Below, piece by piece: positions 25,602 through 54,806 of a stretch of DNA of 64,000 bases (position 1 is the stretch's first letter; every line of letters begins with the position of its first letter). The notes under the pieces are model-generated. The model saw only the letters and a list, made by a program, of their open reading frames with translations, was not told the DNA's origin and did no database searches. The DNA comes from Candidatus Undinarchaeota archaeon (GTDB lineage Archaea > Undinarchaeota > Undinarchaeia > Undinarchaeales > UBA543). The stretch lies in assembly GCA_964636545.1 (NCBI GenBank), contig CAZWSR010000002.1, positions 32,001 through 96,000 of the forward strand. The letters run 5' to 3'. The position numbers were made by a program, and so were the translations under genes.

Positions 25602-25627
25602 ATTATTTACCATATAGTAAATAAATA
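25601..25627 (+). promoter_or_regulatory. 27-bp operator-like site AATTATTTACCATATAGTAAATAAATA, copy 1
   Basis: Between TATA (~25596-25602) and ATG 25627; identical to 27751-27777. Confidence 0.7.
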
Positions 25628-27713: not shown

Positions 27714-28531
27714 AAATTATTCAAAAATTAATAATTTTTTAAAATTAGTGAATTATTTACCATATAGTAAATAAATAGGGTGGTGTGACCCCTTAGTTGC
27801 GAGTGGAGATGATGAAGGTGGTATGTGGTTTGATTTTTTTTATTATATTATTATCTATATGGTAAATATATATATATATATATATATAAATTTTTTCCTC
27901 AAAATTCTAAAAACACTTCTTATGGAAAAATAATTGAAATTTTTTATCACAACCCAAACTAAAAAACCTAATATTTTTTTGATCAATAAAATAAAAAAAA
28001 ACTAAAATATTTTTATTAATATTTTATTTTTCTCACTATTTCCCTTTCTTTATTTTTTATCACCAAATATTATGGGGTGGGTTCACAAATAGGACAAAGG
28101 GCCCCAATAACCCAACGTATTCAGGGGGGCATTCCTCAAACCCTTTTAGGGATTATTCTAAAACCATCAATAACCACCATCAACCCCGCCATTTCCTATG
28201 GACAGTTACTGGTTTTGTTATTTCACTGAAAAACGAATATTTTTCTGTTCTTTTTCTTTTCCTCTTTTTTACCCACTACCCACTACCTACTACCAACCAC
28301 CTTTATTTCCTCTGGAACCCCTATACTAAAACCGGCACCAGTAGAACCCACACTTCATCTGGAACCAAATACTCCAAAAACACCACTCAAAACCTCCAAA
28401 ACACTTCCAGACGAAGCCAAGGGGACACACCCCTACAACAAAGCTTATATACCCTAATTTCATATGCAACTATTAGTCGCATAGGTGGGGAGAATGGCAC
28501 CCATTCTTATGCACTTCGGTGGGTTTATCCA
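27714..28531. other. putative replication origin oriC
   Basis: Gene-free 0.8 kb before cdc6-DP1-DP2. ORB-like boxes: (-)~28184-28203 TCCATAGGAAATGGCGGGG, (-)~28298-28320 GTTCCAGAGGAAATAAAGG, (-)~28347-28366 GTTCCAGATGAAG, (+)~28405-28425 TTCCAGACGAAGCCAAGGGG. AT-rich DUE 27830-28060 with (AT)11; strand-composition switch. Confidence 0.8.
27751..27777 (+). promoter_or_regulatory. 27-bp site copy 2 at left edge of oriC (inverted variant at 27848-27868)
   Basis: Identical to 25601-25627. Confidence 0.7.
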
Positions 28532-29725
28532 ATGGCACAACAAAATCTTCATGACTTATTTGATGACTTTCTAAATCGGGCTCCGCACTTCACAAGGAAG
28601 GACGCGCTCCAAGACACATATACTCCAAGCCAGGTTCCGCACCGGGCTGAGCAAATCAATCAGCTTGCTCAAATCCTGGTTTCTGCACTCCGTGGTGAAA
28701 AACCAAGCAATGTGTTTCTTTATGGCAAAACAGGTACTGGGAAAACCCTAGTTTCTCGATATGTTGGAGAAGAACTTGAAAAAAAGGCTGCAGCTCAGAA
28801 CATGGCACTCAAAATGTGTTACATCAACTGCAAACTTGACAAAATCAACACCGCATACCGACTATTCGCTCGTTTCTTAGCAGAATTTGGAGAAGAGGTG
28901 CCACCAACTGGCCTTCCAACACACGAAGTTTATACACAATTCTTAAACACAATGAATAAACGCAAAGGAATTTTTATCTTGATTTTGGATGAAATTGATT
29001 CACTGGATGACACAGACATTCTCTACAATCTTTCGCGCATAAATACAGAGCTGAAGAATAGCCGAGTGAGCATAATTGGCATCTCCAATGACCTCTCCTT
29101 CACAAACAACCTTGATCCACGCATAAAATCGTCACTTTCAGAGGAAGAACTCGTATTTCCGCCATACAATGCTAATCAAATCAGCGACATCTTAACCCAG
29201 CGCGCAGAACTTGCACTTCAGAAAAACATACTTGATTCTAGTGTGATTCCAAAATGTGCTGCATTAGCTGCTCAAGAACATGGGGATGCTCGCAGAGCAC
29301 TTGATTTGCTTCGTGTTGCTTGCGAAATTGCAGAGAGAAAAGGGTCCCAAAAAATCGAAAGCGTGCACGTTGATGATGCACAAAAGAAACTTGATATCGA
29401 CCGTGTTGTTGAAGTTGTCAAAACCCAACCTCGCCAGTCTCAGCTTGTACTTCACAGCATAATCTATCTTACTGATTTGAATAAGGAAGACATTGGAACT
29501 GGTGATGTGTATGAGGTTTACCAAACATTTTGCAAACAAACCGGTCTCTCCCCACTTACCCAGCGCCGCGTTTCAGACCTAATCTCAGAATTGGATATGC
29601 TTAGCTTAATAAATTCATCAGTTATTTCAATGGGGCGCTATGGCCGAACCCGCAAAATTAAACTGGAAATAAGTGGGCGGGCACTTGAAAAATCCAAAGG
29701 AATTCTTGATGAGGAGTTGTCATGA
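28532..29725 (+). CDS. cdc6: Orc1/Cdc6 replication initiator
   Basis: YGKTGTGKT, LDEID, FPPYNANQ, HGDARRALDLLR, GRYGRTR wH. Confidence 0.97.
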   Translation: MAQQNLHDLFDDFLNRAPHFTRKDALQDTYTPSQVPHRAEQINQLAQILVSALRGEKPSNVFLYGKTGTGKTLVSRYVGEELEKKAAAQNMALKMCYINCKLDKINTAYRLFARFLAEFGEEVPPTGLPTHEVYTQFLNTMNKRKGIFILILDEIDSLDDTDILYNLSRINTELKNSRVSIIGISNDLSFTNNLDPRIKSSLSEEELVFPPYNANQISDILTQRAELALQKNILDSSVIPKCAALAAQEHGDARRALDLLRVACEIAERKGSQKIESVHVDDAQKKLDIDRVVEVVKTQPRQSQLVLHSIIYLTDLNKEDIGTGDVYEVYQTFCKQTGLSPLTQRRVSDLISELDMLSLINSSVISMGRYGRTRKIKLEISGRALEKSKGILDEELS

Positions 29726-43432: not shown

Positions 43433-43511
43433 GGCAGTAGGTAGAAGGCAGGGGGCAGTAGGTCAATTCCACTGCCTAGTGCCTATTACCCAGTGCCCGA
43501 ACAAATTTCTC
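43433..43511. repeat. 79-bp heptamer-periodic hairpin element, copy 1
   Basis: GGCAGTA/GGTAGAA... versus ACTGCCT/AGTGCCT...; 72/79 identical to 45058-45136. Confidence 0.85.
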
Positions 43512-45057: not shown

Positions 45058-45136
45058 GGCAGTAGGTAGTAGGCAGGGGGTAGTAGGTCTGTTCCACTGC
45101 CTAGTGCCAACTACCCAGTGCCTGAACAAATTTCTC
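45058..45136. repeat. 79-bp heptamer-periodic hairpin element, copy 2
   Basis: Direct repeat of 43433-43511; sits between convergent genes. Confidence 0.85.
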
Positions 45137-49753: not shown

Positions 49754-50326
49754 ATGACTTCCTTGCTTGAAAAAGAATTAGAATTCATTAAAAGTATAGA
49801 TTGGTTACAATCAATTAAACTTCGTCCAAGTATTGAGGGAAAGGTTTGGAGGCATGCTGCCAAATTTTTTGACTTGCTGGAATTGAAGAAGCAATGGGGC
49901 CGCCCACTATTTTCAATAAATTTATATAGATTCACCTGGGAAGAGCTTAAGAAACCTGACGACGATCCAGCTTTCTTCAAAAGAGACATTGAGGGGATTA
50001 ATAATATTCGCAAGCGAACCGGCTTTAATGTTGCTGTTCCACAGAATAAGATGTATATTGTTAGGAAGGCTCAGCAGTCTGCTGCAAAGAAATTGTCTAA
50101 ATACAAACATATTCTTGGGAAAGAGTATAAATACCTATTAAAAACTGCTTTTTTTGATATTCATGGTGCGATTGCTTGCGCTTTTTACGAAATTCCTCAA
50201 TTAAAAAACCCATTCCACCAATTTCTATCTATTTGGAAATTCGGTTTTTATCCAGTTGGGCCAGTTTATCAGACAATTTCTCCTCGTAAATTAAATATGT
50301 TTTTTTATTTTGTTCCTAAAAAGTAA
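49754..50326 (+). CDS. hypothetical protein
   Basis: 190-aa ORF; NPF..FLSIWKFGFYPVG. Confidence 0.55.
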   Translation: MTSLLEKELEFIKSIDWLQSIKLRPSIEGKVWRHAAKFFDLLELKKQWGRPLFSINLYRFTWEELKKPDDDPAFFKRDIEGINNIRKRTGFNVAVPQNKMYIVRKAQQSAAKKLSKYKHILGKEYKYLLKTAFFDIHGAIACAFYEIPQLKNPFHQFLSIWKFGFYPVGPVYQTISPRKLNMFFYFVPKK

Positions 50327-50346: not shown

Positions 50347-50365
50347 TGTCTATACACCTGTATAG
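50347..50365 (+). repeat. left 19-bp inverted repeat TGTCTATACACCTGTATAG, followed by GGTAGTG-type heptamers to 50400
   Basis: Exact reverse complement of 54009-54027. Confidence 0.9.
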
Positions 50366-50526
50366 GTGGTGGGTTGTGGGTAGTAGGTAGTGGGTAGTGG
50401 CAAGAATTAAAGAGTAGAGAATCACGCCTCAGCATACTGGTTTTTAATCGCGGTTATGTAATCTCTTATTTATTATCTATATGGTAAATAATTGTAATAC
50501 TTTTGAATTCTGCCTTATTTCCCACA

Positions 50527-50965
50527 CTCACAAATTTATACTTGATTCTAAACTCTAAATTCCAAACTCCAAACTCCATTCTACTTCTCACAAACTGGAT
50601 TTTTACGAACAAACTCAGACCCCTGTCCTTTTCATATCTCACAAATAACCCCGAAACAGCTATATAGCTCCAGGCTATACTGATATATCTCACAAAGCGC
50701 CGGTAGTTTAGCCTGGTATGACCCGAGCTTCCCAAGCTCGAAACTCGAGTTCAAATCTCGGCCGGCGCACTCTCACAATCCTTATTTCTTACCCTCATAG
50801 CACACCATATTGGTGTGAAAATAACTCTCACAAACGAACATTTCAGTTATTTTTCGGTATGGCGCATGCTATCGGTTTCTGAAAAACGTTGTTTTAATGT
50901 ATTAAACGTATCTGATCACAGCTAAAACCTATATCCTCAACAATATAAATTATAGGTCTCACAAC
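50527..50965 (+). repeat. CTCACAAA array (left arm)
   Basis: Exact copies at 50527, 50587, 50638, 50689, 50827; variants at 50772, 50958. Confidence 0.85.
50697..50769 (+). tRNA. tRNA-Gly(CCC)
   Basis: GCGCCGG/CCGGCGC acceptor, CGAGC-TTCCCAA-GCTCG, GTTCAAATC. Confidence 0.95.
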
Positions 50966-51426
50966 CAACTCCCCCAATACCTGACAAATGTCATGTTTAC
51001 CATAAAACACCACATTTTGCTCCAAAAACCACCCTTTTTCTCACTTTTCTTGTATTTTCCTCATTTTTCCTGTATTTTCCCCAAATCTCACTAAACTCCA
51101 CCACATTAGTGACAAACGTCACTCTTTAGGTATTTTTTTCTCCTACTGCCCAGTGCCCACTACCTACTGCCAACATTTCCTCTATTATCGCAACGTTTTC
51201 CTACAAAAACCAATAACAACAAAAATGTCAGGTCATCAAACCGCTAACAAGAAATATGTCATCTTACATATCTTACACATTTTAGTGACATATAGACCCT
51301 TTGCCCTACAAAAAAAACCGATAGCAAGAGAACAACACCGATAGCAGTAAACTGTCCGATATGTAAGCTTACATATCTTACACATTTTTCGAAAGGTTTA
51401 TAAAGGATAAACCACTACCCCTCGGT

Positions 51427-51975
51427 ATGAAACTATTCTCTTTTTTCAAGAAAAAAGCCAAAAATGTGTCCGATATGTCAGGTGAAGTGTCAGATGACAC
51501 ATCAGATATGTCAGATGACAAATCTTACACTTCAGAAGTGACAAATGCCACTGTTTCACGCGAAGATCCGCTTTTTTCCATTTCCAGACAATTAACTCAG
51601 GTTCAATACGAATTACGTGAAATTAAACCACTAATCGAGTCCAGTACTCAAAGTTTACGAGAAGATCACTATCGATTACTTGAAGAACAAGCAAAAAGTG
51701 TTGAAGAATACAAAAAACACCTCTCATACAAGCGCGAAAACCTGAAGCAAGCGAAGGATAAGGTCGAAAAAGAGCTCAAACATGTTGAAGTTGATGCCAA
51801 AATCTTAGATCATGTTTCAATTGCTCCAAAACGTACTATTGAAATTTCTGAAGATTTGAAAATTAGTCGTGGTTACGCTGCTGAACGAATAAAAGCTTTG
51901 CTTGAAGCAGGGCAAATTACTCGCTTCAAACAAGGTCGAAAAGCATATTATAGAATTCCAAAACCAGAAAATTAG
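51427..51975 (+). CDS. amphipathic-helix / coiled-coil / C-terminal winged-helix DNA-binding protein
   Basis: MKLFSFFKKK; heptads; EISEDLKISRGYAAERIKALLEAGQI...GRKAYY. Confidence 0.75.
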   Translation: MKLFSFFKKKAKNVSDMSGEVSDDTSDMSDDKSYTSEVTNATVSREDPLFSISRQLTQVQYELREIKPLIESSTQSLREDHYRLLEEQAKSVEEYKKHLSYKRENLKQAKDKVEKELKHVEVDAKILDHVSIAPKRTIEISEDLKISRGYAAERIKALLEAGQITRFKQGRKAYYRIPKPEN

Positions 51976-51983
51976 GTCGCTTA

Positions 51984-52091
51984 CTACTTCTTTTGTCTCT
52001 CTGCCTTAGCCTTTCTTTTACGTGTTCTTTTCTTCTTAGTTCGCCTACGCATACTACCCTTCTTCTTCATTTTGTTAGGTGCCATCTTCAT
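51984..52091 (-). CDS. rpl41e: ribosomal protein eL41 (eS32)-like small basic protein
   Basis: MAPNKMKKKGSMRRRTKKKRTRKRK resembles archaeal L41e; own TTTTATAAA box about 25 bp upstream. Confidence 0.55.
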   Translation of the reverse strand: MKMAPNKMKKKGSMRRRTKKKRTRKRKAKAERQKK

Positions 52092-52186
52092 AGTGGCTTC
52101 TTGTTGAGACAACTGGTTTATAAAACTTCCTATATTCTTTAGTACAATAAATTTAATTCTCACAAACTCCGCCTTGCCGCGGACAA

Positions 52187-52277
52187 TGTGCAGGCATTGA
52201 AGTTGGTTACTGCACAAGTCTCAAACCTTCGGTTTGAGAGGATGGCATGAGGGCATTCACGCTTCGCGTGAAGCCCT
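52187..52277. repeat. cluster of three hairpins, two with C-GAA-G triloops on the minus strand (REP-like or terminator)
   Basis: TGTGCAG/CTGCACA; CTCAAACC-TTC-GGTTTGAG; GGGCATTCACGC-TTC-GCGTGAAGCCC. Confidence 0.6.
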
Positions 52278-52300
52278 GTCTTGAAATTGGTTCGTTCTAC

Positions 52301-52894
52301 TTAGTCGCTTCCTCTCGCTTTTGCAGTCTGAACCAATGAATTATACTCATTAGCAATATGCTCCCAAAACTTACTAAACTGCGTACTTGGTCTCACAATT
52401 TTCTTGTAATATTTCTGTTTTGAATGTTCATGATGGAATTCTTCACGCTCTAATCTTACCATCCCAACTCTCCTCAATCTGGGCAAGATCACGTTGTAAA
52501 ACGTAGCTTTTGAGAACCCTTTCTCTCGAATAAACGCCCCAATCTCGTCTCCTTTCAATACCTGTCTCTCAAATAACCTATTCATAAACTCTAGGGCTGT
52601 CAAGTGGTACTTTTGCTGATATTTTGGAGGAAAAACCAGCTCTAGTATCTGGTTTAGCTCAACCCTCACATTCTTATGATATGCCCAATCTGACCTCAAT
52701 CTTTTAACATCATCAAACCACATTGACTCTTTGCTTGGCACACCTCGACTTGCAGGTCCCCTCGCTGAAAAAGTTGGTTTTTTGCCTTCATCTCTCTCCA
52801 CAACTTGCACAACCTCGGATGCATATTCAATATCATTATGGTGTTTTTGGTCCATAGTCGCCGGTATGCTATCTTGGTATTTAAAACTTACCAT
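52301..52894 (-). CDS. winged-helix-like DNA-binding protein
   Basis: EIGAFIREKGFSKATFYNVILPRLRRVGMV HTH/wing pattern. Confidence 0.65.
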   Translation of the reverse strand: MVSFKYQDSIPATMDQKHHNDIEYASEVVQVVERDEGKKPTFSARGPASRGVPSKESMWFDDVKRLRSDWAYHKNVRVELNQILELVFPPKYQQKYHLTALEFMNRLFERQVLKGDEIGAFIREKGFSKATFYNVILPRLRRVGMVRLEREEFHHEHSKQKYYKKIVRPSTQFSKFWEHIANEYNSLVQTAKARGSD

Positions 52895-53119
52895 TATGGT
52901 AAACTCTGGGCCAAGTAAGAAATTAAAAAATCGTCTTCCGGTCTAGTGTAATGGTGTGATATCACTTTTTTGGTTGACAGGGGCTAGGGTATGCGATTAA
53001 ACAAGTATTTTTTATGAAAACTTAGCAAAAAACCTGATCCCAGTTTATCATAATGGTGTTATTCCACTATTTCCTAAAATCAAATTTCTACAACTTCAAA
53101 ATAACACCACAATGGTGTT

Positions 53120-53431
53120 TTACTCACTTTCTGGAATATTTTCTTCAGTTCTTTGCGCTAAACTCTTGAAAAGCAAATTTTCAAAGTCATTTGCCAGTGC
53201 ATTTCCAGCTTCAGTCAAACTTATGTATTTTACACGGCCATCCCTGTTAAATTCAACAAGTTTGTGATCTTGCATCTTTTGTAGCAATTTTACAGTGTGT
53301 GCGTACGTACAATCTATTCTTTTTGCTAAATTTGATGCATATGCCTCTGGATGTGCCTGTTTGATGTGTACAAGCAGTCTAGCTGGCTTTTTTCTAAGAA
53401 ACATCTCTTCTAATTCAATATTTGTTTTCAT
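53120..53431 (-). CDS. MarR-type winged-helix transcriptional regulator
   Basis: YASNLAKRIDCTYAHTVKLL...DGRVKYISLTEAG; ATG 53431 with GGGGT SD. Confidence 0.85.
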   Translation of the reverse strand: MKTNIELEEMFLRKKPARLLVHIKQAHPEAYASNLAKRIDCTYAHTVKLLQKMQDHKLVEFNRDGRVKYISLTEAGNALANDFENLLFKSLAQRTEENIPESE

Positions 53432-53615
53432 AATTTTACCCCCTGATGAACAACATCTCAAAAGTGAGAGTTGTCTTTTCTATCTTCCAACACAAGTTTT
53501 GGAATTATAAGTATTGTAATGTATCTTTAGTATTTATTCTTTTTCCAGTGACAATTGTCAGCAAATATCAAAACCGATAGCAAGCGAACCGTTCAATTTA
53601 TTACCCAAAATCTCG

Positions 53616-53868
53616 TTTGTGAGAGTTAGCTCATGTGTTAAAGTGTTTTTGAAAAATGTGAGACCGAAAAAATAGGTCTAACATTTTTGTGAGGGGCATC
53701 GGAGCATCGTAAATTCGTAGAGCCGGGGCGCCGGGGCGACGTAAAGTGGTTTTGTGAGTGAAAAACCAATTTGTGAGAGTTTGTGCAGAACCAAAATACA
53801 ACAAATCAAAAAGTTAGATCAAAAACATGCATTTGTAAGTGCTAAAAACTCTAAAATATTTTTGTGAG
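53616..53868 (-). repeat. TTTGTGAG array (right arm, inverted relative to left arm)
   Basis: Exact copies at 53616, 53686, 53751, 53770, 53861; variants at 53656, 53780, 53832. Confidence 0.85.
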
Positions 53869-54008
53869 GATTAGAAAATGGTTGGTGGTTGGTAGTTTGT
53901 GGTTGGTTGATGAACTAAAAAATACACAAACTAAAACCCAAAAACCAATATGTTGCGCACCAGTTTAGTTTTTCATTCTACCCACCACCCACAACCAACT
54001 ACCTACTA

Positions 54009-54027
54009 CTATACAGGTGTATAGACA
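54009..54027 (-). repeat. right 19-bp inverted repeat, preceded by CTACCCA-type heptamers from 53978
   Basis: CTATACAGGTGTATAGACA. Confidence 0.9.
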
Positions 54028-54121: not shown

Positions 54122-54745
54122 ATGCCTAATCCACAGCTATTAGCTTACGTGCGCCAGAACCTCCAACTCAACTATTCTGAAGAACAAATACGCAATGCCC
54201 TAATCACTGCTGGCTACAATATGCGCGATATTGATGATGCACTTGATTCTGTTCTGCATCCCCAAGATCTTGCTCAAGTTCAACAAGCTCAACCACAAAA
54301 ACCAGAAGCAGTCGCCCAACAAAACTTTCTCCACAAAATCCCAACCTGGATGATTGGCGCCGCTGTTGGCGGAATTTTCCTACTTGTTGTAATCATAATT
54401 CTTCTCATTCCAAGCGGAGATGCTCCCTCTGGTCTTCTTTCAGAAAATGGAATCAAAGTTTCCGCATACGACTTTGCTTGCGCAGGTCCTGGATCAACAT
54501 TGACAATCACAATCAACAACGATGGCTTTGAAACCTTGTCAGATATTCAGCTTTTCGTGGATGACGCCTTTCAACAAGACCAACTCGTTCCATCACTAGA
54601 ACCAGATGCCTCCGGCACATATTCGTACTCAGGCATCGATTGCACAGAATGGGTACAAGGGAAAACCATAAAAATCGTTTCTGACAAGGCAGTAGTAGAA
54701 GGACCAATCGATTTCAAGTGCACTTCAGGTGCATGCTCAGGCTAG
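54122..54745 (+). CDS. single-pass membrane protein with N-terminal helical domain and Ig-like ectodomain
   Basis: LLAYVRQNL..YSEEQIRNAL..AGY; TM helix; ITINNDG. Confidence 0.65.
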   Translation: MPNPQLLAYVRQNLQLNYSEEQIRNALITAGYNMRDIDDALDSVLHPQDLAQVQQAQPQKPEAVAQQNFLHKIPTWMIGAAVGGIFLLVVIIILLIPSGDAPSGLLSENGIKVSAYDFACAGPGSTLTITINNDGFETLSDIQLFVDDAFQQDQLVPSLEPDASGTYSYSGIDCTEWVQGKTIKIVSDKAVVEGPIDFKCTSGACSG

Positions 54746-54806
54746 GTGTCAGGTATCAGCTGTCAGCCATCAGGTCAAGAGACCTGACTGCTGAGGGCTC
54801 ACACCT
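54744..54806. repeat. heptamer-periodic hairpin (TGTCAG type)
   Basis: GGTGTCA GGTATCA GCTGTCA GCCATCA GGTC-aaga-GACC TGACTGC TGAGGGC TCACACC. Confidence 0.7.

Follow-up and report, generated by a model that had tools for sequence, protein, structure and literature searches.

Autoregulated archaeal regulators of the MarR, ArsR, TrmB and Lrs14 types are encoded by small winged-helix genes that adjoin their own palindromic or repeated operators, which lie at the TATA/start region and overlap the promoter or start site. Archaeal origins carry ORB repeats, oriented and in a mirror layout, that flank an unwinding element beside orc1/cdc6. Mu and Tn7 carry several oriented binding sites just inside their termini, arranged as inward arrays of one oriented site. 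In the AspA-ParB-ParA (pNOB8) and SegAB systems, a small winged-helix protein uses a palindromic starting site, with flanking repeats doubling as operators; AspA is described as binding its palindrome and then spreading, and bacterial parS as origin-proximal (PMC13722703).

We analysed a 64,000-nucleotide stretch (the window, whose positions are used below) of the genome of a small marine archaeon, Candidatus Undinarchaeota (G000; 840,427 bases, 83%-complete), in which one locus resembles the autoregulated regulators: small winged-helix genes adjoin their own predicted palindromic and repeated operators, at TATA/start regions. Unlike those systems, it unites three different regulators in one conserved unit, has mirror arms each carrying 6–7 oriented, near-locus-restricted putative half-sites, is palindrome-capped at its ends and encloses genes for a ribosomal protein and a tRNA. 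The initial annotation had described a repeat-bounded, motif-rich locus with about 2 kb of non-protein-coding DNA and no integrase, transposase, Rep or ParA. As a whole this observation was confirmed, with 2083 of 3681 nt counted as non-coding and no such domain in any ORF of the locus (Pfam, NCBIfam, PHROGs). The arms are two colinear, degenerate mirror images of ~0.6–0.7 kb each, capped by a 19-nt repeat, and their colinear alignment score (318) exceeded that of shuffled sequence (217 ± 8.5, 30 shuffles). Between them lie tRNA-Gly(CCC), wH182 (a winged-helix gene with a putative coiled-coil), an eL41-like gene, wH197 (a probable divergent winged helix) and wH103 (MarR-like). wH182 is transcribed rightward, and wH103, wH197 and eL41 leftward. 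The surrounding genes are housekeeping genes (serS, M42 peptidase, Hef). The features are as follows.

50347–50365 (+): left boundary palindrome, core CTATACA-CC-TGTATAG, one arm of the 19-nt repeat.
50365–50400 (+): G-rich heptamer array, GGTAGTG x5, one of a genome-wide dispersed family.
50470–50490 (+): 21-nt element identical to oriC 27848–27868, of the TTATCTATATGGTAAATA type and related to TTTACCATATAGTAAA; kept in the G001 arm.
50527–50964 (all +): left-arm CTCACAA array, 7 boxes (starts 50527, 50587, 50638, 50689, 50772, 50827, 50958); orthologous boxes kept in G001 and G002.
50697–50770 (+): tRNA-Gly(CCC), flanked by a box immediately upstream and a second box 1 nt downstream; TATA-like CTATATAG begins 29 nt before the upstream box.
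50821–50880 (+): two-part block, TAACTCTCACAAACGA, a spacer of ~28 nt, then CGC-TGCTATCGGTTT; mirror copy at 53570–53629 (-).
50929–50993 (+): promoter-like conserved block (CTATATCC, 21 nt, TCTCACA), then palindrome TGACAAATGTCA.
51254–51406 (+): putative wH182 promoter operators; 30-nt repeats at 51254 and 51359, ACCGATAGCA at 51316 and 51336, core BRE/TATA AAAGGTTTATAAA ~30 nt before the ATG.
51427–51975 (+): wH182; variable N-terminus, conserved EDPxISxSRQLT motif, helical region, C-terminal ArsR/AspA-like winged helix.
51984–52091 (-): eL41/eS32-like small basic protein, 35 aa.
52165–52303 (no strand): GC-rich multi-hairpin dispersed element, a MITE-like insertion outside the conserved cassette.
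52301–52855 (-): wH197, 184 aa from MDQK..., of a family without a Pfam match, single-copy across the order.
52856–53119 (-): wH197 promoter; TATA GTTTTAAATA ~30 nt before the ATG, palindrome TTACCATTATGGTAA beside the TATA, and more ACCAT dyads.
53120–53431 (-): wH103, small MarR/HTH_27-type winged helix; closest solved relative AF_1382.
53432–54008 (-): right arm; 6 CTCACA boxes, all - (53618, 53657, 53688, 53753, 53772, 53863), TGACAATTGTCA at 53549, ACCGATAGCA at 53572, heptamer arrays at 53879–53907 and 53978–54009.
54009–54027 (-): right boundary palindrome, the other arm of the 19-nt repeat.

The perfect 19-nt inverted repeat noted by the initial annotation (TGTCTATACACCTGTATAG) had these two occurrences only in the genome, against an arithmetic chance expectation of ~3e-5 for a perfect 19-mer inverted repeat within 4 kb. 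Its core is itself palindromic (CTATACA-NN-TGTATAG) and was kept at both cassette ends in G001, G002 and G004; the central dinucleotide was CC/GG in G000 and G001 and CT/AG in G002, changed at both ends. Complementary heptamer runs do continue inward of the repeat, as had been claimed (28 nt at 86%; 46 nt at 72%), but they are not locus-specific and form part of a 7-nt array family dispersed over the genome: the 12-mer GGTAGTGGGTAG occurred 12 times over 8 contigs and 279 period-7 arrays were found in the whole genome (TRF). Summed contig depth was very high in the 50365–50400 bin, from other loci or organisms. Two elements had been thought to be copied exactly from oriC. The 21-mer TTATTATCTATATGGTAAATA (27848 / 50470) was specific to oriC and the locus, whereas the 22-mer (28273 / 50379, opposite strand) was the dispersed heptamer. 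The oriC regions of G000 and G001 contained a palindrome related to the 50470 element; that of G002 had a variant form.

Three winged-helix genes had been proposed, and this held for wH103 and wH182, while wH197 gave weak signals only. wH103 matched HTH_27 (25.1 bits, cut-off 22.2) and, in profile searches of the PDB, AF_1382 (2e-10) and AspA (0.004). wH182 matched HTH_24/TrmB below threshold, as it did ArsR and Lrs14 models, and its C-terminus matched structures in the range 2e-5 to 1e-4, including ArsR (2.4e-5) and AspA (8e-5); we read its helical region as a coiled-coil. For wH197, PadR was matched in 5/19 family members (best E 0.007) and a MarR structure, 3s2w, at E 0.011, with no significant match of its profile to wH103 or wH182; from these signals it is probably a divergent winged helix. 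ATAATGGTGT of its promoter was present in G006 too. The eL41-like gene was supported through its G003 orthologue, which matched archaeal eL41/eS32 chains (E 1.8e-5); the best E value of the window's own copy was 1.7, though all four of its matches were eL41/eS32 chains. It lies inside the cassettes of 8/9 relatives, and no second eL41 copy was found. The tRNA-Gly, also predicted at the outset, is an additional cassette member in this genus. The GC-rich element at 52165–52303 (z -2.75 / -3.89) has a 90.7% copy at C1:13175–13314 and partial copies on contigs C1 and C3; it was missing at the corresponding G001 site, and a variant contig exists among the public-run contigs.

Repeated motif families had also been reported, and one of them is the CTCACAA box, which occurs 14 times in the locus, where its frequency in the remainder of the genome would predict 0.46. 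The whole window held 23, compared to 13.5 ± 3.5 after shuffling (23 reached in 0/100 shuffles), and elsewhere in the 840 kb there were only 7 intergenic copies, in contexts without a common feature. The boxes point inward on both arms. Over 10 loci of the order, which come from kin genomes so that their counts are not independent, sense:antisense ratios were 44:5 on wH182-side arms and 36:6 on wH103-side arms, with 91 boxes in 18 kb of arms versus 29 in 78 kb of flanks. Oriented arrays occupied both arms in 8/10 loci; in family f2 (G003, G007) the wH103-side arm was without boxes, so that not every locus is symmetric in its two arms. Comparison inside the genus showed near-invariant boxes and a near-invariant TAACTCTCACAAACGA...TGCTATCGGTTT block amid diverged spacers. 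In this block, two islands hardly vary and are separated by a spacer whose sequence varies but whose length is nearly constant; with 0 RNA pairs predicted, the pattern suits a pair of protein sites on DNA. In G000, G001 and G002, the tRNA-Gly and 50958 boxes are each preceded by a (C/G)TATAW element that begins 29–30 nt upstream; the 52159 box has one in G000 alone, its G001 counterpart being degenerate. This distance is the standard archaeal TATA-to-start spacing, placing these boxes at the expected start site; many boxes lacked a TATA-like element at -29, so not every box is at a promoter. Arm ends in families f5 and f4 additionally showed the box in dyad or inverted-pair form (e.g. TCTCACA-N4-TGTGAGA), as would be expected for the half-site of a dimeric winged-helix protein.

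Conservation extended across the order. Order and relative orientation of the three regulator genes were identical in 9/9 same-order relatives fetched, and the mirror-oriented arrays were conserved. wH197 was found in 12/13 genomes of the order, with one match in each; the one assembly that lacks it has 75% completeness and 190 contigs. The flanking genes (p213 side, serS side) were constant in all 8 loci with a visible flank. Relative to G000, G001, G002, G006 and G012, the cassette was inverted against its flanks in G003, G004 and G005, and the tree requires at least one inversion event. The G004 breakpoint lies on the M42 side, no more than ~70 nt from the palindrome, and the end palindromes of this genome are in direct, not inverted, orientation. 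In the four genomes with cassette and orc1 on one contig (G000, G001, G002, G006), the distance between them was 11–21 kb.

The account we favour, and give about an even chance, is a single-copy chromosomal regulator cassette, conserved in one Ca. Undinarchaeota order, auto- and cross-regulated and with its own proteins coating both arms. We infer that the oriented box aaCTCTCACAww would be a half-site for one of the winged-helix proteins. Binding may begin at the palindromic end caps and conserved two-part blocks, followed by cooperative loading along both arms. Boxes appear to lie on or beside start regions (the wH103 leader, the tRNA-Gly promoter, a conserved distal promoter at ~50958 and a promoter-like site with a box at 52159), so that occupancy would throttle transcription into the cassette. 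Each gene might also be tuned by separate operators, namely the ACCAT dyads at the wH197 TATA and the 30-nt repeats plus ACCGATAGCA at wH182; TGACA-N2-TGTCA was present on both arms. The mirror symmetry of the arms would let an oligomeric binder bring them together in a loop, and wH182, through its putative coiled-coil, is the candidate oligomer. The physiological output would be a self-contained switch under auto- and cross-regulation. Against this account, two arms of this length and box number exceed the usual needs of simple autoregulation, which leaves room for an architectural or segregation role, and terminal TGT...ACA repeats with oriented arrays inside also resemble complex transposon ends. 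The public runs listed for this DNA included no RNA run.

An architectural role could take the form of an origin-proximal, centromere-like site, in which one cassette protein coats the arrays and marks or positions the origin region, the sites doubling as operators. Such a site might need no neighbouring NTPase, or might rely on a ParA/MinD-type ATPase encoded at another locus. We consider this unlikely, despite the proximity to orc1 in 4/4 resolvable genomes, reminiscent of bacterial parS (PMC13722703), the near confinement of the box to the locus, like a unique chromosomal address, the palindromes capping oriented arrays, the palindromic element common to cassette and oriC, and the AspA matches of wH182 and wH103. 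StbA has been described as a partition system that lacks an NTPase partner encoded on the plasmid. However, origin proximity may reflect gene order kept among kin from two families, and the likeness to AspA is that of a generic ArsR/MarR fold, no stronger than to ArsR, SmtB and MarR. In contrast to AspA's single palindrome, the boxes are dispersed at 20–130 nt spacings. The initial annotation had proposed an analogy in role to SegAB/AspA; membership of a ParABS, SegAB or AspA-type partition cassette was not borne out: there was no adjacent ParB adaptor gene, and no NTPase gene in or adjoining the cassette in the 10 loci read, the ParA/MinD-like matches of G000 lying on contigs C5, C10 and C6 (weak). 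The same annotation's idea of a second chromosomal origin was largely refuted, and we regard it as barely credible. Long non-coding arms with mirror-arranged repeats do resemble ORB layouts, and the 21-mer is shared with the true oriC 22 kb away; yet the locus has no ORB-type TTCCAGAnGAA boxes of the kind read there, no Orc1/Cdc6 or other initiator domain and no AT-rich unwinding element (lowest 100-nt GC 24% vs 12% at oriC), and cumulative GC skew peaks once, at 27–28 kb, falling steadily through 50–54 kb.

Several features fit a transposon-like origin: perfect terminal repeats start TGT and finish ACA, one oriented site is arrayed inward at both ends as in Mu and Tn7, the ends evolve in concert at their central dinucleotide and three genomes carry the cassette in the opposite orientation to its flanks. 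A possible flanking direct repeat, ACCCT, was intact in G001 (5/5), nearly so in G002 (4/5) and degenerate in G000, leaving target-site duplication uncertain. The cassette could be an ancient, immobilised relic whose ends and arrays were retained because its cargo regulators now use them, although this is quite unlikely. The dispersed copies that would mark a transposon were not found: the cassette is single-copy at a fixed chromosomal site across the order and without transposase or recombinase, and the 83%-complete genome contained no rve, DDE_Tnp_1 or tyrosine-recombinase match. Among viral contigs nothing matched the end sequence, no homologous proteins were found and a box 16-mer had 9 single, chance-like matches, and only 3/42 metagenome loci with the end motif were cassette-related, all in the same gene context. 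Purifying selection acts on the boxes across families, which sets them apart from relic ends in decay, the G004 palindromes are direct, and the arms are three to five times longer than those of Mu or Tn7. A mobile element is thus unlikely, and by analogy the inward two-end geometry would also suit the pairing of two DNA arms by one protein. Identical boundary repeats evolving in concert, the occurrence of both orientations among families and the G004 breakpoint would fit an invertible switch that flips between the repeats, altering what flanking promoters read into. This is highly improbable, since contigs of four independent public runs bridged both repeats in the reference orientation, with no strand-changing joints seen (such contigs drop rare variants), no recombinase was found in or near the cassette or in the rest of the genome, and 19 nt is short for homologous flipping. 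Lastly, the arms may be promoter arrays for small non-coding RNAs, with the box as a common start-site or leader (5'-CUCACAAA) and not a protein operator. This would explain the TATA-like elements before tRNA-Gly and two other units, the boxes on both sides of the tRNA in G000, G001 and G002, and left-arm spacings of 51, 51 and 55 nt that could delimit short units. It is nonetheless rather improbable: the sequence separating the boxes is poorly conserved among members of the genus, no Rfam family except tRNA exceeded threshold, the best-conserved block lacks a consensus RNA structure, most boxes have no TATA-like element upstream, and the single structured GC-rich segment is the dispersed insertion absent from G001.

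Taken together, the interpretation offered by the initial annotation was supported in part, in that an operator-dense platform around three DNA-binding protein genes is real and conserved. Across this order, its layout looks like that of a self-regulating switch, neither a second origin nor a jumping gene.

The locus is bounded by the perfect 19-nt inverted repeat that the initial annotation had placed at 50347-50365 and 54009-54027, and no other occurrence of this sequence was found in the source genome (G000; 840,427 bases in 39 contigs, 83% complete). The core of the repeat, CTATACA-NN-TGTATAG, is palindromic in its own right. Non-coding DNA accounts for 2083 of 3681 nt between the repeat copies, matching the ~2 kb originally claimed, and the two arms, on the wH182 (left) and wH103 (right) sides, rank among the longest gene-free stretches of the genome, at approximately four-fifths of the length of the oriC gap on a crude ORF map. 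The genes of the cassette are listed below.

Genes of the cassette (window coordinates)
50697-50770, + strand, tRNA-Gly(CCC)
51427-51975, + strand, wH182
51984-52091, - strand, eL41-like, 35 aa
52301-52855, - strand, wH197, 184 aa as called in the protein collection
53120-53431, - strand, wH103

As had also been claimed, the locus ORFs yielded no domain of an integrase, transposase, Rep or ParA in Pfam, NCBIfam or PHROGs. Only the tRNA passed the Rfam search of the locus, and four sub-threshold matches (E 0.43-4.7) were judged to be chance. The cassette is flanked by housekeeping genes encoding an M42 peptidase, seryl-tRNA synthetase and Hef. Directly to its left, a 190-aa ORF (49754-50326) had no match in Pfam, NCBIfam or PHROGs, and tblastn found it in none of the fetched relatives, both same-genus ones included; probably it was inserted recently or is an orphan.

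Aligned with the reverse complement of the right arm, the left arm gave a colinear alignment (score 318 versus 217 ± 8.5 for shuffled sequences). Common landmarks run, from outside to inside, through the end palindrome, heptamers, GCATAyTGGTTTTT, paired boxes (CTCACA or CTCACAA), TTTTTCGGTCTCACA, a two-part block and TGACA-N2-TGTCA; the defined motifs in or linked to the cassette are the CTCACA box, the end and oriC palindromes, TGCTATCGGTTT, TTACCATTATGGTAA and TGACA-N2-TGTCA. All boxes point toward the genes, with 7/7 in the left arm on the + strand and 6/6 in the right arm on the - strand. In the two-part block, TAACTCTCACAAACGA-(about 28 nt)-CGCxTGCTATCGGTTT, two islands are near-invariant, and the spacer between them is variable but hardly changes in length. 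Six sequences of this block yielded zero predicted RNA pairs and no consensus structure, and we read it as two adjacent putative protein-binding sites on DNA. Helical phasing of the box spacings was also considered and was unconvincing on inspection.

The core promoters of wH182 and wH197 have their BRE/TATA elements ~30 nt before each ATG, a spacing which, by the archaeal standard, would imply leaderless mRNAs for both genes. Conserved putative operators lie directly upstream of these promoters, namely 30-nt repeats at wH182 and TTACCATTATGGTAA together with other ACCAT dyads at wH197. The tRNA gene of the left arm has a box on each side. At the tRNA-Gly and 50958 sites, each of the three genomes of the genus has a (C/G)TATAW element beginning 29-30 nt ahead of the box, and at the 52159 box it is clear in the source genome and degenerate in the same-genus relative G001; this spacing puts the box at the expected transcription start at all three sites. 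The tRNA-Gly(CCC) of the window is 74 nt long and lacks the ~20-nt intron-like insertion found in those of G001 (L012 4029-4124) and a relative from another family, G003 (L017 3762-3855), which are 94-96 nt. The G003 gene lies on the wH103 side, points outward and has no boxes around it. In total, ARAGORN identified 36 tRNA genes in the 83%-complete assembly.

Enrichment over genomic background, which the initial annotation had set as a test, was found for the box: CTCACAA occurs 14 times in the locus versus 0.46 expected. Outside the locus there are seven intergenic copies in the genome, and the window as a whole holds 23 versus 13.5 ± 3.5 in shuffles. The GGTAGT-type heptamers, taken earlier for a feature of the locus, turned out to be a genome-wide class, as the 12-mer GGTAGTGGGTAG occurs 12 times on eight contigs, usually as one arm of a long local hairpin. 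TRF detected 279 period-7 arrays of many sequence families in the genome, 138 of which have their midpoint in the ~12% left intergenic by the crude ORF map, and heptamer bins pile up contigs from other loci or organisms. Within the window, such arrays lie for example at 28270-28294, 43473-43497, 45061-45088, 50365-50400, 50550-50578, 53879-53907, 53978-54009 and 54744-54775, with unit families including ACCTACT, AAATTCT, ACCTGAT, AAACTCT and ACTGCTG. Many form ~30-bp hairpins with G-T mismatches together with a complementary array close by, and the arrays may act as terminators or belong to a REP-like family of elements.

Two elements had been described as exact copies from oriC. The 21-mer (27848 and 50470) is specific, and of the four genomic sites of its core TATATGGTAAAT one is in the cassette and the others are at or near oriC; the 22-mer (28273 and 50379) is the dispersed heptamer. 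A near-palindrome, TTTACCATATAGTAAA, flanks the AT-rich core of oriC, with sites at 25606, 27756 and 27851, has a variant in the left arm of the cassette (50473) and is also present in the oriC regions of both same-genus relatives, G001 and G002 (L023 and L022). The TTACCAT half-site is common to this near-palindrome and the operator at the wH197 TATA box (52888-52902), and together they suggest a possible regulatory link between cassette and oriC.

The palindrome TGACA-(A/T)(A/T)-TGTCA occurs in the window at 50982, 51110, 51539 and 53549, and its sites elsewhere in the source genome include C1:64218, C1:91586, C1:111558, C5:49153, C6:24845 and C20:2110. Nine of the 10 one-mismatch matches to TGACA-N2-TGTCA outside the locus are intergenic. 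Off-locus sites lie upstream of genes for TFB, an SPFH/Band-7 protein, a 1460-aa beta-helix surface protein, a transglutaminase-like protein and DUF63/Rce1-like membrane proteins; a cell-cycle regulon was rejected, as the genes downstream have no coherent theme. A GC-rich folded segment at 52165-52303 was likewise rejected as a cassette RNA, being a dispersed element that is absent at the orthologous site of G001, with a 90.7% copy at C1:13175-13314 and partial copies at C1:52846-52911 and C3:22825-22896. This element of ~140 nt has three or four hairpins and at least four copies or part-copies, two adjoining tRNA-Leu-GAG and tRNA-Ala-GGC, and resembles a small element that moves or recombines.

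The claim that the locus carries three winged helix-turn-helix (wHTH) genes held to differing degrees. wH103 clears the Pfam cut-off (HTH_27, 25.1 bits versus 22.2; HVO_A0114, 27.9 versus 27.6), its best solved relative is AF_1382 (2qvo, 2e-10), and by these profile matches it is a MarR/HTH_27-type winged helix. For wH182 there are PDB-profile matches only: its C-terminus scored 18.0 bits against HTH_24, below the Pfam cut-off of 21.9, and its PDB profile matches are all wHTH proteins (2oqg ArsR, 2.4e-5; AspA, 8e-5). The two proteins match each other at E 6e-4 (hhalign). The N-terminus of wH182 is variable, acidic in the source genus and lysine-rich elsewhere, whereas its EDP..S.Q.T motif is invariant; a long helical region and the putative C-terminal winged helix complete the protein. 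Signals for wH197 were weak and scattered. This family (24 clusters by one search, 61 representatives by another) has no Pfam match; PadR was seen in 5/19 members (best E 0.007), ArnR1_WHD, HTH_27, MCM_C and ScpB each in one or two of 37, the MarR structure 3s2w was matched weakly (E 0.011), and a language-model lead (Atlas) pointed to the AF_0843 family (score 0.91). In the PDB, neither the wH197 profile nor the C-terminal half by itself had a significant match, and hhalign detected no relation to wH103 or wH182. A full-length match of the eL41-like peptide to eL41/eS32 came via the G003 orthologue (1.8e-5, residues 1-34); the window copy reached E 1.7 only, with 4/4 matches being eL41/eS32 chains, and Pfam was silent on these 35-38-aa peptides.

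The cassette is conserved across the order. wH197 was found in 12 of 13 genomes, with one match per genome having it, and the remaining genome is 75% complete in 190 contigs. The synteny check proposed for the three regulator genes gave the same order and relative orientation in all nine same-order relatives fetched, eight of which also have the eL41-like ORF after wH182. Arm architecture is conserved too, with box arrays on both arms in 8/10 loci; family f2 (G003 and G007) has zero boxes in the wH103-side arm. Over these 10 loci, which come from kin genomes and whose counts are not independent, the wH182-side arm holds 44 sense and 5 antisense boxes and the wH103-side arm 36 and 6, the boxes being ~14-fold denser in the arms than in the flanks. 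Their consensus is aaCTCTCACAww, with AA as the flank in family f1 and TTT in f4 and f5, where the box also occurs as a dyad or inverted pair at the arm ends.

The caps, CTATACA-NN-TGTATAG at both ends, are present in the loci of 3/9 same-order relatives (G001, G002 and G004). In G002 both ends carry a changed central dinucleotide (CT/AG), a sign of concerted evolution, and in G004 the caps form a direct rather than an inverted pair. With respect to its flanking genes, the cassette lies one way in G000, G001, G002, G006 and G012 and the opposite way in G003, G004 and G005. Its history includes at least one inversion, and a tree of wH182 and wH103, in which the families are poorly resolved, says no more than this. 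A scan of genome contigs for wH197 returned one locus, in a same-genus relative. The distant archaeon G025 (L020, G025:C3 3392-6539) encodes a wH197 homologue of 42% identity (39% by tblastn), but neither arms nor the other two regulator genes accompany it. Some 1.3 kb separates this homologue from serS, and the interval holds a P-loop (Walker A) gene whose product was read as KaiC/RadA-like. Several same-order cassettes also sit near serS, and since the G025 homologue does so without arms, the wH197-serS linkage seems older than the arms.

Each of the second-origin, partition-cassette and mobile-element readings fails at least one defining test. The true origin was placed at about 27.7-28.5 kb, in a region of 25.7% GC with a (TA)n run and with ORB-like boxes of the TTCCAGAnGAA type at 28300-28420; it adjoins PolD subunit genes and orc1/cdc6 (28532-29725), the sole Orc1/Cdc6 gene identified in the window. 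The second origin suggested at the cassette lacks this signature: its repeat families include no TTCCAGAnGAA ORB-type boxes, its ORFs encode no Orc1/Cdc6 or WhiP/Cdt1 initiator by Pfam or NCBIfam, its minimum 100-nt GC is 24% versus 12% at oriC, and the cumulative GC skew of the window has a single maximum, at 27-28 kb. The parS-like alternative, a partition cassette of the ParABS, AspA-ParBA or SegAB kind (for AspA and parS, see PMC13722703), did not hold either, with no Walker-type NTPase ORF in the locus or its flanks and with the AAA_31 and CbiA matches of the source genome only on contigs C5, C10 and C6. The resemblance of the cassette winged helices to AspA is at the generic-fold level, and their genes adjoin putative site arrays that are nearly restricted to the locus. 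We consider a centromere-like or architectural role unlikely, although arm size, the near-restriction of the box to the cassette, the palindromic element common to cassette and oriC and the near-origin position all speak for it; measured in all four genomes with both on one contig, the orc1-cassette distance is 11.0 kb (G001), 12.8 kb (G006), 20.5 kb (G002) or 20.6 kb (G000).

The layout of the ends is transposon-like, with terminal inverted repeats perfect over 19 nt and a candidate target-site duplication, ACCCT (5/5 in G001, 4/5 in G002, degenerate in G000), beyond which the flanks are themselves inverted (AAAATA / TATTTT). Such duplications together with dispersed copies had been named as the sign of a non-autonomous transposon; the cassette is single-copy and has the same flanking genes across the order. 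Neither rve, DDE_Tnp_1 nor Phage_integrase (XerA type) had any match in the whole 83%-complete genome. Viral contigs gave zero matches to the end motif and nine single matches to a box 16-mer, without related proteins and judged to be chance, and a metagenome scan by the end motif recovered 42 loci, three of them cassette-related and none from a new lineage. We consider a mobile element unlikely, given the single copy, the fixed site and the lack of transposase matches among the locus ORFs; descent from a domesticated element, for which the end layout argues, is in our judgement quite improbable. An invertible switch was rejected, with no recombinase match and with contigs of four runs in one orientation without joints, a survey that rare variants could escape. 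According to PMC13343696, eukaryotic-like transposons were not detected in Undinarchaeota. We found no account of the cassette in the literature on Undinarchaeota winged helices or inverted repeats or on DPANN chromosome segregation; the Undinarchaeota genome paper, a portion of which treats replication genes, may list the genes in its supplements as hypothetical proteins or regulators (PMC7414124).

Judged from sequence, a self-contained regulator cassette is the best-supported reading. One cassette protein would occupy the oriented box arrays of both arms, the remaining operators would give auto- and cross-control, and, as a reasonable extension, a putative oligomer would pair the two arms. 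It is a decidedly speculative and rather improbable further step that a winged-helix oligomer pairs the arms in the manner of transposon ends, forming one large nucleoprotein body 11-21 kb from oriC that acts as a centromere-like or origin-marking chromosome landmark in these tiny DPANN cells without an adjacent ParA. If true, this landmark would be an NTPase-independent or trans-acting device for segregation and organisation, with no described counterpart among archaea, and its occupancy would feed back on the tRNA gene, eL41 and the three regulators.

Undinarchaeota are uncultivated, with genomes under 1 Mb and scarce non-coding DNA, ~2 kb of which is here devoted to one conserved cassette. 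Since the box is almost absent elsewhere, it must serve something both important and local. As a compact and fully specified test system, made up of five or six defined DNA motifs and three small proteins, the cassette could become a model for regulatory or chromosome-organising nucleoprotein complexes in DPANN archaea. It may link the origin region, through the common palindrome, with components of translation (eL41 and tRNA-Gly) and with transcription control.
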